The notes under the pieces: generated by a model
Told to the model about the DNA's origin: nothing
The model's database searches: none
What the model saw: the letters and a program-made list of their open reading frames with translations, nothing else
IMG/VR virus record: IMGVR_UViG_2671180724_000020
Origin: a virus
Lineage: Duplodnaviria > Heunggongvirae > Uroviricota > Caudoviricetes
DNA: 20,469 bases
Reading direction: 5' to 3' (one strand)
Position numbers and translations under genes: made by a program
Shown: piece by piece, positions 75-11,237 of the stretch
Position numbering within the stretch: position 1 is the stretch's first letter
Layout: each line of letters opens with the position of its first letter

Positions 75-1361
75 TTACCCAGCTTTCTTATGGGGCATAC
101 ATGGGACACTTTCAGATAGTCTTTTGTTAAGGAGTTCTATCTGTTCGTGATTGTTGTCTTTCATCCATGCTCCGTAAACATTGAATACCATTTGTGCGTT
201 TGTGTGGCCCATCTGGCTTGCGATAAAACTAGGATTAGCTCCAGCGGCAAGTGACCAGCATGCATAAGTATGCCTGGATTGGTACGATTTTCTGTGTCTC
301 AGACCTGCGCGTTTTAAGATACTTGTCCATGACTCCCTGATGGAGTCAACCTTATAGTGCGGTCCGGAAAACTGCCGCTGTTTTATTACCTGAGGACTAA
401 AAACAAAAGTGCATTTATGCACAGTACTTCTCCCATATTCCCTCTGCTTTACCTCTACAGAATGTTGCTTTCCAAGCATGGTCATTTCCGCCTGACTTTT
501 AAGAGCATCAATAGCTGGTTGAACCAGATGAATTGTCCTTCCGGTGCCAGCATCGGTTTTTGGTGGAGTGAATTCGCCAAGTTTTGTATAATTCCTACGG
601 ATGGTTATAGTCCTTGCTTTAAGATCTATATCTTCCCATGCCAGCGATACCAGCTCCCCGTGACGAATACCCGTGTATACAGCGAGAATCCACAGGTTTT
701 TTGTTTGTTGATGACGGCAAGCCTCAATAAAACGAATAAATTCGTCACGGGTGAGAGGATCTGGTTTTACCTTGGACTTTTTTAAGGGTGCCAGACCGTT
801 AAATGGGTTTCCTGAGGTATAACCATTATCTGTTGCAAATTGAAACATTCCAGCTATGGTTGTCATATAGTAGTTTACTGTGACCACTGAGCGCCCTTTT
901 ATGGAAGAAATCTTTCCATTAGAAAGCTTTTGGTAACCGGTCAACAAATCTCTCCTTGCGAAAAGTAAATCCTCTTTTGTTATGGATGAAACCAGTTTTT
1001 TCTCACCCAACATAGGCAACATGTTTTTAATTACTGACTGGTAACGATTAAGTGCATTCGCACAAATCTCAATTTTCTTAAGGTCCAACCATTTTTCCGA
1101 AAGTGCCTTAACGGTTATCTCTCTTTTTCCCAGACCAAAGTGTTTCAGGTTAGGGGAATTAGGGAACTGCGCGGCGTAGTCGAAACTCCCCATTCTGATT
1201 GCAAAACAAACGGAAGTGCGAAGTTCACCAGCGATCTTCCGGTTTTTGGCTGTGTCAGGAACACCGAGGTTTTCTCTGACACGTTTGCCATTATAGTGAA
1301 ACCATATACGGAGTGATCCTCCATGGTTTTCAACGCCTGTCGGGTATGATGCGTTACTCAT
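75..1361 (-). CDS. int: Phage tyrosine integrase (site-specific recombinase)
   Basis: 428-aa ORF at the edge of the prophage. The C-terminal region has tyrosine-recombinase signatures (...HELVSLAWEDI..., ...SRHTYACWSLAAGANPSFIASQMGHTNAQMVFNVYGAWM with the catalytic Tyr in VYGAW). GGGAGG lies upstream of the ATG at 1361. An excisionase-like gene sits immediately upstream. Confidence 0.9.
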   Translation of the reverse strand: MSNASYPTGVENHGGSLRIWFHYNGKRVRENLGVPDTAKNRKIAGELRTSVCFAIRMGSFDYAAQFPNSPNLKHFGLGKREITVKALSEKWLDLKKIEICANALNRYQSVIKNMLPMLGEKKLVSSITKEDLLFARRDLLTGYQKLSNGKISSIKGRSVVTVNYYMTTIAGMFQFATDNGYTSGNPFNGLAPLKKSKVKPDPLTRDEFIRFIEACRHQQTKNLWILAVYTGIRHGELVSLAWEDIDLKARTITIRRNYTKLGEFTPPKTDAGTGRTIHLVQPAIDALKSQAEMTMLGKQHSVEVKQREYGRSTVHKCTFVFSPQVIKQRQFSGPHYKVDSIRESWTSILKRAGLRHRKSYQSRHTYACWSLAAGANPSFIASQMGHTNAQMVFNVYGAWMKDNNHEQIELLNKRLSESVPCMPHKKAG

Positions 1362-8179: not shown

Positions 8180-8869
8180 CTAACCAAATCTGTTTATGTT
8201 GAATGGTACTGATGAGATCACTTTAGACTGGATATAAAGCAGAGCTAACCCCTCTTTTTCGATGCTCCATGGTTGATAATTGGGGTTATCAGATAACACC
8301 ATGATTTTGCTTCCAATTTTTTGAAGCCTTTTCACGTAGCATTCTCCATCAAAACAAAATGCATAAATACCATCGCCATCAAAATAAGTTACTGTCTTAT
8401 CAAGAAAAAGAAGGTCGCCAGGTGAGATTGTGGGAGCCATACTGTCTCCTCTGGCGTTACCTATTTCTATATTTTTGAATGCCCGATTTCCAACAAGACG
8501 TCGGGCATATTCAGGATCAAGTTCTATTGAGCGCACTACATCTATCAAGTCACCACGGACATGAGTTCCATCACCGCAACTAAACTCAACATCAAGGACA
8601 TTAAATACGACGCTATCTGTTCTTGTCTGGTGTTTCTCTTGCGAAGAAAAGGTTGGTGAGGAGTCTTCACCTAAGAACCAGGATTGTGGATAACCGCTAA
8701 TCTCTGATAAATGCGCGAGCTTATCACTCCGTGGAAATGTTTTTCCTGTTGTCCAGTACTGCACTGATTGCGCACTCACACCTAACTTGCGGGCCAGTTG
8801 AGCCTGAGTCCATCCTTTTGCTTTCAGCATCGCGGCTATTCGATTTTCCGTGTTTTTGACGTTCTTCAT
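8180..8869 (-). CDS. cI: CI-type prophage repressor (N-terminal HTH, C-terminal S24 LexA-like autopeptidase)
   Basis: The N-terminus has an HTH (GWTQAQLARKLGVSAQSVQYW). The C-terminus has the S24 motifs GDSM (ARGDSMAPTISPGDLLF) and a downstream Lys (YVKRL). Divergent from the cro-like gene across an operator-bearing intergenic region. Confidence 0.9.
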   Translation of the reverse strand: MKNVKNTENRIAAMLKAKGWTQAQLARKLGVSAQSVQYWTTGKTFPRSDKLAHLSEISGYPQSWFLGEDSSPTFSSQEKHQTRTDSVVFNVLDVEFSCGDGTHVRGDLIDVVRSIELDPEYARRLVGNRAFKNIEIGNARGDSMAPTISPGDLLFLDKTVTYFDGDGIYAFCFDGECYVKRLQKIGSKIMVLSDNPNYQPWSIEKEGLALLYIQSKVISSVPFNINRFG

Positions 8870-8875
8870 GACCAA

Positions 8876-9002: not shown

Positions 9003-9275
9003 ATGGAAGGAAATGATTACGACAAACTTCGTGCATTAATTGCGCAAAATGCCATAGCGCGAAATCTTGGTGTGACGCCGCAAGCGGTGAATCAGTGGTT
9101 TTCAAAAAACACAATTCCTGCTCGTTTCGTTTTACGCGTATGTGAAGTAGTTGCATGGAAGGTCACGCCACATGGCTTAAGGCCAGATCTTTATCCTCAC
9201 CCTGAAGATGGAATTCCTGATTCGTTACGCAAAATTTCAAATCCAAGCTTAGCGCACACAGAGGACGAGAAGTGA
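9003..9275 (+). CDS. cro: Cro-like / YdaS-family HTH regulator
   Basis: 90-aa ORF divergent from cI. HTH region (LGVTPQAVNQWFSKNTIP) resembles Cro/YdaS-type regulators of Rac-like prophages. Very short leader. Confidence 0.7.
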   Translation: MEGNDYDKLRALIAQNAIARNLGVTPQAVNQWFSKNTIPARFVLRVCEVVAWKVTPHGLRPDLYPHPEDGIPDSLRKISNPSLAHTEDEK

Positions 9276-9345: not shown

Positions 9346-9639
9346 TTAGCGTTCGCTGAGAAGTTGTTGGTAAGCCTTAAAGGATGCGAACTGCATTCTA
9401 CCTTCGGCATTGATTCCAATGCCTTCGCTTGTACACCAGGTGATGAACTCGGCTGTATCCGCTTCAACTTTAATAACTCGTTGCCCGCTTCTTTCGACAC
9501 GCTTAATCAATTTTTCAGCGTCGTGTTTCCACTCGGTGTAACTGTCGGAGAGCACATCAGCATCAGTAAAAATATTTTTGAGCTCATGATACTGAATCGC
9601 ATCGCGAAACCAGAATAAACCAACGGCCTGAACTTTCAT
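9346..9639 (-). CDS. Hypothetical protein (97 aa) convergent with cro
   Basis: Excellent RBS on the minus strand (AAGGAGG 6 nt before the ATG at 9639). The fully overlapping plus-strand ORF 9286-9618 has a weaker start context. Confidence 0.55.
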   Translation of the reverse strand: MKVQAVGLFWFRDAIQYHELKNIFTDADVLSDSYTEWKHDAEKLIKRVERSGQRVIKVEADTAEFITWCTSEGIGINAEGRMQFASFKAYQQLLSER

Positions 9640-9716: not shown

Positions 9717-10466
9717 ATGTGCGGAATCTTAAAAGAATTTATCCGTAAGGAGATGGCAGTGAACACCGCAATTTTTAACGACAAAGCATCCATGACCAGC
9801 GTTGAGATCGCAGAGCTGGTGGGTAGTCAGCACTCAGATGTTAAACGTAGTATCGAACGCCTGGTTGCTAAAAACATCATCCGGAAACCGCCAATGGCTG
9901 TTTCCGAGAAAATCAATAACTTAGGTTTTAAAGTTCAATATGAGCATTACCTGTTTGAAGGAGAACAAGGTAAGCGCGACAGCATCATTGTCGTCGCACA
10001 GCTCTGCCCTGAATTCACTGCTCGCCTGGTAGATCGCTGGCGTGAACTGGAAGAACAGATCCGTAAGCCAATGAGCGAAATTGAAATGGTTGCTGCGATG
10101 GCTCTTGAAGCCGTTCGCCAACAGAAACGGATCACTCAGGTGGAAGAAAAAGTCAGCCACGTTGCTGAAACAGTCGAGCAAATTAAAAAGGGCACTATTC
10201 GTGAGGGCTATGCCGGATATCGCCAACTGAAAGCAAAAACCGGTTTGTCAGATGATAAATGCCGCAATCTGGTGAACGCCTATCAGATTCCTACAGACAC
10301 CCATGAGTTCATGACGCCGGACGGATTGTTGTCACGTCGCGCAATTGTTGCTGTGGAACCGTTTATGGCTGCTTTTTATCGGGTTATGGAGGAAGCAGAA
10401 CCGCGAGGGACTCGCTGGTATCACCCGAAAATGGGGTTATTTCAGGTTATTGGTTGGCAGCGGTGA
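9717..10466 (+). CDS. Phage regulatory / antirepressor-like protein (Rha/AntA-like N-terminal domain)
   Basis: The N-terminal motif MTSVEIAELVGSQHSDVKRSIERLV matches the short DNA-binding domain of Rha/Ant-type phage regulators. The true start may be the GTG at 9759, which has AAGGAG 6 nt upstream. Confidence 0.65.
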   Translation: MCGILKEFIRKEMAVNTAIFNDKASMTSVEIAELVGSQHSDVKRSIERLVAKNIIRKPPMAVSEKINNLGFKVQYEHYLFEGEQGKRDSIIVVAQLCPEFTARLVDRWRELEEQIRKPMSEIEMVAAMALEAVRQQKRITQVEEKVSHVAETVEQIKKGTIREGYAGYRQLKAKTGLSDDKCRNLVNAYQIPTDTHEFMTPDGLLSRRAIVAVEPFMAAFYRVMEEAEPRGTRWYHPKMGLFQVIGWQR

Positions 10467-10874
10467 AAAAAAGCCGGGAGTAACCCGGCTCACTCAACAT
10501 CAATAACGGGGAGCTGTTTCGCATAAAACGGCTCCGAAACATCCAAGAACAGTTCTAAAGATATCAGCAGCTATATGATCATTTCAAGACCAAATATTGA
10601 TTCTGCAATTTCGGGACGTTACACTGTCTCCGCACCTTATAAAGCGGGTGCCGGGGGTCGCAGCCCGGAATTGTCAACGGCGATATATGACGCGCCAGCG
10701 TCTTTTTTATCGTCCGCGCTCACGCACGCCAGAATTATGGTGGGCTGGGCAGGGGAGCCGAAAGGCTCGCCGGTCTCCGTTGACGCCGGTACTGCGAACC
10801 CTGTTCAGTCTGCCACCAGTGAGTTTCGCAGCTCCGGTGGTGGAAGTTTTCCACAGTCAACGGAGGCTGCCATC

Positions 10875-11237
10875 ATGGCTACTGTCCCAACTTCCCCATA
10901 CCTGAAAATTGAAGTTGTCAACGGCAAGGCCGTTATTTTCTCCCTGCATGTTGCCTGCCACTTTAAGCGAATGCACCAGAACATCGTTGACAAAATCGAG
11001 TATCTGAACTGCTCACGCGAGTTTTTTACCTGCAATTTCATACCGGGTACTTATCACATCTACGGTGACTCCCTGCGTGGTTATTACATCACTCTTGATG
11101 GCCTGATGATGCTTCAGCTTGGGTTAAGTCTGCGCACAATGCGGTACTACGAGAGCTGCATTGAGGCATTCCATGAAGCTGAAACCAGCCTGAATCATAC
11201 AGCTTTCCGCTGTAATCAATGGGAGGTGCGCCCATGA
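10875..11237 (+). CDS. Rha-family-like phage regulatory protein (120 aa)
   Basis: ATG at 10875 preceded by ACGGAGG. The motif AVIFSLHVACHFKRMHQNIVDKIEYL fits the Rha pattern (V.TSL.VAE.FGKRH.NVLRDI). The upstream 300 nt of the track ORF looks non-coding. Confidence 0.5.
   Translation: MATVPTSPYLKIEVVNGKAVIFSLHVACHFKRMHQNIVDKIEYLNCSREFFTCNFIPGTYHIYGDSLRGYYITLDGLMMLQLGLSLRTMRYYESCIEAFHEAETSLNHTAFRCNQWEVRP

Follow-up and report, generated by a model that had tools for sequence, protein, structure and literature searches.

The question raised by this locus is what fills the roughly 400 bp between two Rha-like genes in the early region of a lambdoid prophage. The DNA analysed, referred to here as the window, is the 20,469-nt stretch of IMG/VR virus record IMGVR_UViG_2671180724_000020. 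An initial annotation made from the letters alone had read positions 10467-10874 as a GC-rich, non-coding spacer with hairpins that could encode a small RNA or a regulatory or origin-like element. We find that the interval very probably holds an immunity-type RNA switch, of the kind represented by P1 immI, P4 CI and Gifsy-1 isrK, that gates the Rha-like gene at 10875-11237.

Genomic setting of the interval

Gene matches along the window give the early region a lambdoid layout, in which the following features are relevant here:

75-1361, minus strand: integrase
8180-8875, minus strand: S24-type repressor
9003-9275: Cro-like gene
9759-10466: Rha/Ant-like gene with a match to Pfam Phage_pRha
10471-10491, minus strand: G+C-rich hairpin of 8 pairs, directly 3' of the stop codon of the upstream Rha/Ant-like gene
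10875-11237, plus strand: regulated gene, encoding a 120-aa Rha-domain protein (Pfam Phage_pRha, PHROG)
Downstream of the cassette: O-like, DnaC-like and DnaB-like replication genes

The placement between two Rha-like genes was described correctly, as the neighbours at 9759-10466 and 10875-11237 each match Phage_pRha, and so was the base composition, with a G+C peak of 0.58 in 10600-10899 against 0.44-0.49 in the flanks. The match of the downstream ORF to Phage_pRha is borderline (30.1 bits against a cut-off of 29.9), and the same ORF falls into phrog_995 (E = 4.9e-57), which carries the PHROG label "transcriptional regulator". No homology was found between this Rha-like protein and AnrP of Gifsy-1. 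Given the borderline Pfam match and the lack of relationship to AnrP, "antirepressor" is a name by analogy, and we refer to the product of 10875-11237 as a candidate antirepressor or regulator.

Two further features of the window were recorded in passing. A 97-aa leftward ORF (9346-9639, minus strand), situated past the Cro-like gene and ahead of the first Rha/Ant gene, overlaps a plus-strand ORF of 110 codons; it matches phrog_4753 over its full length (E = 1.8e-49) and is missing from an otherwise near-identical prophage of E. coli B19374, a strain matched at 99.9% identity. The phage also carries tRNA genes for Met (CAT) and Arg (TCT), at 19472-19547 and 19628-19704.

The first of the hairpins described initially, directly after the upstream gene, is present at 10471-10491, but it had been credited with flanking A and T runs; the plus strand has only an A7 run, on the 5' side, and the T7 run is on the minus strand. 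In the terminator scan the hairpin is therefore terminator-like for leftward transcription. It lies outside the isrK/C4 module described below: in relatives, homology of the module breaks near 10599, leaving 10467-10596 as a separate mosaic piece, and in mosaic relatives of the window homology begins at about 10599, which is the -35 hexamer of the candidate promoter. The minus strand of 10462-10587 may itself encode a small leftward transcript, with a promoter-like TTGAAA-18-TATCTT containing a TG (10587 to 10558) and the terminator at 10491 to 10471 followed by T7. This candidate folds over 91 nt with z = -3.05, and its sole Rfam match was a weak, sub-threshold one to sroD. A search of phage records for diversity in 10462-10598 returned 9 matches, all at least 99% identical and hence too uniform for covariation.

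An isrK-type leader followed by a C4-type RNA

A window-wide Rfam scan at curated thresholds placed two known RNA families in the interval, both full-length and on the plus strand. Together with candidate promoter and pairing-site assignments, these matches divide the interval as follows, using the P1 convention for the a and b sites, in which b2 lies at the ribosome-binding site:

10575-10874, plus strand: upstream extension of the downstream ORF, the "Ash" part of "ash family protein", open and without protein-level conservation
10597-10625, plus strand: candidate promoter, TTGATT (10597-10602), 17-nt spacer, TACACT (10620-10625)
10632-10708, plus strand: isrK-type leader sRNA, Rfam RF01394
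10632-10651: isrK hairpin 1
10651-10668: isrK hairpin 2, with a1 in its loop (10656-10663)
10673-10680: b1, single-stranded, GUCAACGG, complementary to the b' loop
10689-10702 plus U6: intrinsic terminator of the leader (terminator scan)
10733-10820, plus strand: C4-type antisense RNA, Rfam RF01695
10774-10785: b', loop of C4 hairpin 2
10791-10802: a', single-stranded, after C4 hairpin 2
10824-10832, plus strand: a2 target, UUUCGCAGC, complementary to a'
10855-10867, plus strand: b2 target, AGUCAACGGAGGC, complementary to the b' loop

The leader matches RF01394 (isrK) with 58.7 bits against a gathering score of 50, over model positions 1-77 of 77. The inverted repeat noted initially near 10650-10670 is the CCGGG/CCCGG pair at 10652-10667, and the GACGC/GCGTC hairpin followed by T6 was recovered at 10689-10708 by the terminator scan; it forms the leader's weak intrinsic terminator. 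Across 60 unique relatives the isrK hairpins are 83.5% paired, compared with 69.4% in shuffles. The stability of the isrK segment taken alone is ordinary (z = -0.98), and the support for this predicted element comes from the Rfam score and covariation, not from stability. The RF03163 c4-a1b1 model remained below its cut-off in the window (18.5 bits against 46.7). In the subset retrieved by sequence pattern, 100 of 111 unique C4 loci have an isrK-like leader ahead of them.

With 8 of 12 consensus matches, the candidate promoter is weak and falls under the threshold of the promoter scan. Among 84 unique relatives, nearly all nonetheless have a -35/-10 pair at a fixed distance 5' of hairpin 1, although their sequences have diverged, and the candidate of the window aligns with the TTGACA-17-TATATT found 5' of isrK in Gifsy-1. 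Transcription would be expected to start at about 10632.

The second element scores 78.8 bits against RF01695 (C4; gathering score 45) over model positions 1-87 of 87. It comprises a closing stem of 17 bp, hairpin 1, hairpin 2 with the b' loop, the single-stranded a' and a CCA-like 3' tail past the closing stem (CCACCA, 10813-10818). Its minimum free energy fold is the Rfam consensus structure, a cloverleaf-like 83-nt fold (10738-10815) of -47.8 kcal/mol with z = -4.65, a value that none of 200 shuffles equalled. Structure and terminator prediction thus confirmed the hairpins described initially and added the dominant structure of the interval, the C4 fold at 10738-10815, which that first description had overlooked.

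Pairing in the C4 element is also conserved. Among 68 diverse relatives scored on the Rfam structure, 92.9% of cells hold standard pairs, compared with 78.7% in column shuffles and 29-53% in slid registers, and compensatory changes occur at 16 of 27 pairs. Out of 500 shuffles, none was as high as the real alignment in paired percentage or in covariation score, and one equalled its count of compensatory pairs. Hairpin 2 is invariant in this set as it was fixed by the retrieval pattern, and for the same reason RNAalifold misdrew it on the C4 alignment; pairs were therefore counted on the Rfam structure instead. The promoter scan found no promoter of the C4 element's own, which suggests that C4 is cut from read-through transcripts.

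Six pairing sites covary among relatives

The order of parts is candidate promoter, isrK-type leader (a1, b1 and weak terminator), C4 (b' and a'), a2 and b2. The single-stranded a' of C4 is complementary both to a1, in the loop of isrK hairpin 2, and to a2. The b' loop is complementary to the b2 stretch GUCAACGGAGG (10856-10866), which holds the Shine-Dalgarno sequence GGAGG (10862-10866) located 8 nt before ATG 10875; b2 thus lies over the Shine-Dalgarno sequence of the Rha-like gene. The inverted repeat formed by b' and b2 is exact over 10 nt and its duplex has 11 bp. Predicted duplex energies are -18.8 kcal/mol for b' with b2, -15.5 for b' with b1, -10.5 for a' with a2 and -16.7 for a' with a1. 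When the b' and a' region was paired as a whole, it gave -36.2 kcal/mol with the target and -38.0 with the leader, and 0 of 500 shuffles were as good. The whole leader, 10632-10890, folds with z = -4.49 and has alternative structures, in which b' and a' pair with a1 and b1 in the minimum free energy fold and with a2 and b2 in the centroid.

To relate these sites to those of other phages we used a pattern for the C4 core, which retrieved 120 IMG/VR loci and 106 unique 520-nt segments, probably including the window itself (locus L070). The pattern fixes GCCGG...CCGGT...TGCNAACCC and misses variants like that of Gifsy-1, so family-wide fractions apply to this subset only. The 106 unique loci carry 63 different b' loops, with which the pairing sites covary. 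For a locus's own loop, the longest stretch of exact complementarity is on average 7.5 nt on the upstream side and 7.9 nt on the downstream side, compared with 4.3 and 4.5 nt when loops are swapped between loci (maximum over 50 permutations, 4.6 and 4.7 nt).

The same behaviour is visible at close range. In a gap-free alignment of 20 close relatives with at least 81% identity, nearly all differences in 10632-10874 fall within the six pairing sites and change in concert: b1, b' and b2 covary as a trio, and likewise a1, a' and a2. The b variants in these relatives are GTCAACGG, GCATACGG, GATCAAGG and GCTCAAGG, which occur with 2 a types in 7 combinations. When the window was compared with L001, L004, L015, L017, L023 and L033, cassettes at least 90% identical were seen to carry 7 combinations drawn from 4 b and 2 a specificities. 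Such combinations among near-identical cassettes suggest frequent reassortment or diversifying selection of the immunity type. As a point of nomenclature, the APSE-3 record labels the a and b sites in reverse relative to the P1 convention.

With two Rfam families above their gathering scores and pairing sites that covary in relatives, the proposal of a small RNA or regulatory element held up well. The origin-like element suggested alongside it did not. An origin or iteron array serving the following replication module would suit a position some 600 bp 5' of the O-like, DnaC-like and DnaB-like genes and the threefold presence of the short repeat GTCAACGG. The only repeats in the interval, however, are the a/b pairing sites, the threefold one being b1, b2 and b', which covary as RNA partners; the region has no A+T-rich stretch, being the G+C maximum; and P1, P4, APSE and Stx phages, with unrelated replication modules, have the same cassette 5' of genes of the Bro, Ant or Rha type. 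The module travels with antirepressor-type genes and not with replication genes. We accordingly rejected the iteron reading, the repeats being RNA pairing sites, and attach next to no probability to it.

Many E. coli prophages are defective. Given this, and given the weak consensus match of the promoter, the cassette might be a decayed remnant in which the Rfam homology is real and the switch no longer works in this prophage. We consider this very unlikely, as all six pairing sites in the window remain mutually matched over 8-11 bp, with duplexes of -10.5 to -18.8 kcal/mol, and the C4 stem, terminator and Shine-Dalgarno sequence are all intact. Moreover, identical cassettes are found in inducible Stx phages, and ASU11 was obtained via mitomycin C induction.

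An open reading frame crosses the RNA cassette

The frames across the interval had been described as low-complexity peptides. One of them is in fact a 220-codon ORF (10575-11237) that spans the cassette in register with ATG 10875, and the translation of 10575-10874 matches Pfam PF10554 (Phage_ASH) over residues 16-99 with E = 7.6e-14 (52.5 bits against a gathering score of 26). The translation of the 220-codon ORF also matches the N-terminal parts of six PHROG families. In view of the Phage_ASH match, the non-coding reading had to be tested against one in which the interval encodes the N-terminal "Ash" domain of a 220-aa Ash-Rha regulator, with incidental hairpins and no regulatory RNA. Besides the uninterrupted ORF and the database matches, this protein reading draws on the RefSeq name "ash family protein", used in hundreds of E. 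coli genomes.

The composition of substitutions speaks against it. In phages that have the Rha ORF of the window, entropy at the three codon positions is 0.17/0.19/0.15 in 10629-10874, compared with 0.06/0.03/0.33 in the first 80 codons of the Rha ORF, which served as a positive control. Among 45 diverse variants of the long ORF the corresponding values are 1.16/1.14/1.20 for the isrK part, 0.61/0.66/0.79 for C4 and 1.00/1.08/1.03 for a2-b2, with almost no excess at the third position. Selection on the amino-acid sequence of 10629-10874 was thus not detectable by the codon-position test, and no conserved translated protein emerged across the interval at the level of protein conservation. A plain protein domain was rejected on this test, with its internal positive control. 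The apparently conserved residues coincide with RNA elements, the U-run of the terminator being read as FF or FL and the a' region as GTANPV, and substitutions track RNA pairing.

The start of the ORF is equally unhelpful to a protein domain. ATG 10575 lies outside the conserved module, 108 nt past the upstream stop codon, and lacks a Shine-Dalgarno sequence; so does the second in-frame ATG at 10737, as the initial annotation had said of these frames. In other loci the arrangement differs: in phiP27 the long ORF overlaps the preceding gene, and in L062 a GGAGG stands 8 nt ahead of the ATG. The frame breaks off after 14-63 codons in many lineages. An AlphaFold2 model of the 220-aa product, built on a 36-sequence alignment, showed no secondary structure in residues 1-100 (pLDDT 23-32), which is weak evidence as the whole model is poor (mean pLDDT 36.2).

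The Phage_ASH family itself points the same way. In P4 (L124, 8168-8584, minus strand) the match is to the obsolete cI ORF, which contains the CI RNA, that is, the Rfam C4 match; epsilon of P4 has no Phage_ASH match and belongs to PF25738. A survey of P4 satellites took PF10554 as a marker of epsilon (bioRxiv 10.1101/2021.03.30.437493). Phage_ASH appears to owe its conservation to the RNA.

The frame itself is nevertheless kept open in about half of the lineages. Traced back from the start codon of the gene that follows b2, the in-register frame has no stop until beyond the isrK start in 19 of 38 lineages (sequence clusters), compared with 2 and 9 for the other frames. The same openness is seen in loci whose register is not that of the conserved AUG at the C4 5' end. 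Some variants in the cluster to which the window belongs have unrelated upstream flanks, and there the frame still continues without a stop for over 90 additional codons. Stop codons in the b' loops are likewise rarer in the AUG frame (4 of 59) than in the other two (12 and 14 of 59). In the window the C4 5' AUG (10737) is in frame with the Rha ORF, with no stop between them. The description "non-coding" therefore stands insofar as no selection at the amino-acid level was seen, and falls short insofar as a frame in register with the downstream gene is preferentially kept open. On balance we judge a 220-aa Ash-Rha regulator without RNA highly improbable, and the RNA switch remains the preferred reading; translation through 10575-10874, from upstream transcripts as with eta of P4, may occur on top of it.

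A separate observation concerns three E. coli "ash family proteins" of 341-374 aa (P0002, P0041 and P0101), whose ORFs cross two tandem isrK/C4 cassettes. In these ORFs the second cassette is in another frame relative to its own C4 AUG, yet it is open into the second copy of the Rha start.

Comparison with Gifsy-1, P4 and P1

A close parallel in element order is the isrK - STnc1160/orf45 - anrP locus of Gifsy-1 in Salmonella Typhimurium (Hershko-Shalev et al. 2016, PMC4825925), which matches the same two Rfam families (isrK, 79.3 bits; C4, 69 bits). The promoter distance is equal in the two loci, the isrK-C4 spacer is 24-25 nt, the regulated gene starts 54 nt past the end of C4 and has its Shine-Dalgarno sequence covered by b2, and an AUG is found at the 5' end of C4. 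In Gifsy-1 the ORF that begins at this AUG, orf45, is 45 codons long, overlaps anrP at its end by ATGA, and is reported to be translated and coupled to anrP (PMC4825925), whereas the corresponding frame in the window runs on without a stop. The regulated proteins are unrelated (a 120-aa Rha-domain protein in the window, the 187-aa AnrP in Gifsy-1), and the settings differ as well: the window locus is in the early right operon 5' of replication genes and has no isrJ after the cassette, while the Gifsy-1 locus lies next to a Q-like antiterminator.

The P4 immunity region (PLE - seqA - CI RNA - seqC - kil, nested in eta) gives Rfam matches to isrK, corresponding to seqA, and to C4, corresponding to CI. 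P4 and the window share an identical sequence, GGAGGCTGCCATCATGGCTAC, where the first gene past the cassette begins, and each has a long ORF that extends across the cassette in register with this gene and matches Phage_ASH. In P4, CI and seqA lie inside eta, of which kil is the short form starting after the cassette; eta is reported to be translated from an upstream promoter, and its translation to prevent termination (PMC10111431). The two systems part in several respects. The spacer between leader and CI is 107 nt in P4 and 24 nt in the window. P4 immunity acts mainly by premature transcription termination of the replication operon, whereas b2 of the window directly covers the ribosome-binding site of a Rha-type gene. 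Unlike P4, the window represents a lambdoid prophage, with a CI/Cro-type repressor pair in addition, and its long ORF is apparently not coupled to the upstream gene, given the 108-nt gap and lack of a Shine-Dalgarno sequence.

The P1/P7 immI operon has the order P51b - a1 b1 - c4 - a2 b2 - icd - ant. In the P1-like phage RCS47, isrK and C4 are both matched by Rfam in the same order as in the window, and the frame that begins at the C4 AUG is 39 codons long. C4 of RCS47 is followed first by icd (73 aa), which starts MATVPTPTHPEF; the window ORF starts MATVPTSPYL. In P1 the small icd ORF is separate and coupled to the large ant, whereas in the window a single 120-aa Rha-domain ORF occupies the icd position. 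Citron and Schuster are said to have found, in 1990, that loop and target specificity differ between P1 and P7, and it is in this manner that loop and target specificity varies between close relatives of the window.

The first codons of the window ORF (MATVPT) match the starts of both P1-type icd and P4 kil; the starts compared were 10875-10900 in the window, 2139-2170 in L125 and near 8350 in L124. As these first 6-8 codons are common to otherwise unrelated genes, the boundary of the module lies inside coding sequence.

A proposed switch for the Rha-like gene

Read against these systems, the parts of the cassette suggest how it might work. By analogy we infer the transcription start, the efficiency of termination, the processing and the stability of C4. 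Transcripts from the internal promoter would mostly end at the isrK terminator and yield an sRNA of about 77 nt, as expected from the homologues, and those that read through would be processed to a stable C4, a step carried out by RNase P in P1 and P4. Pairing of b' and a' of C4 with b2 and a2 would then hide the ribosome-binding site and keep the Rha-like protein off; C4 may also provoke premature termination, as in P4. The copy of a1 and b1, whether in cis or on a free IsrK-like sRNA, would compete for the C4 loops, such that an excess of a1/b1 could free the ribosome-binding site, corresponding to the activation seen in Gifsy-1. The immunity type, that is, the specificity of the switch, would be set by the a and b sequences. 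The sequence is compatible with translational repression as in P1, with termination as in P4 and with a mode dominated by IsrK activation as in Gifsy-1, and does not discriminate between them.

Early-operon transcripts arriving from upstream carry the long in-frame ORF from ATG 10575. Should this ORF be translated, the passing ribosomes would melt the cassette and so circumvent the switch, as with eta in P4. A more elaborate version of the switch, which we regard as possible although on the doubtful side, treats the cassette as a three-tier nested gene with products of 220, 166 and 120 aa, in which upstream translation overrides the switch and Phage_ASH is the translated shadow of an RNA locus. 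The 220-aa form may come from early-operon transcripts only. The 166-aa form may begin at the C4 5' AUG (10737), a start that may be that of Gifsy-1 orf45 fused in frame to the regulated gene, and the 120-aa form may begin at the start masked by b2. Were this true, the Phage_ASH frame would be open only for the passage of ribosomes and would not represent a protein domain.

Occurrence and significance

Of 5,426 complete E. coli genomes, 837 contain some part of the locus. For the 12 genomes that match best, the only RefSeq label is "ash family protein", with no RNA gene listed at the matching position, and inspection of one RefSeq locus found no RNA gene annotation. Tandem isrK/C4 elements are already annotated in the records of Stx2 phage F039 and APSE-3. 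With a label of "ash family protein" and no RNA gene, a prophage-induction regulator of Stx-type phages is easily overlooked.

Collectively, the cassette belongs to a known RNA regulatory system, as a so far unstudied member, and is not an origin; its type is ordinary for temperate phages of enteric bacteria. Only two points are mildly new, namely the in-frame fusion of an orf45-like frame to the regulated gene, and the apparent reflection of RNA conservation in Phage_ASH. To the biology the locus adds little, being one more immunity/antirepressor RNA switch of the type studied in P1, P4 and Gifsy-1. The Phage_ASH family is worth review by database curators, and the a/b loop types offer a ready typing scheme for cross-immunity between co-resident prophages.
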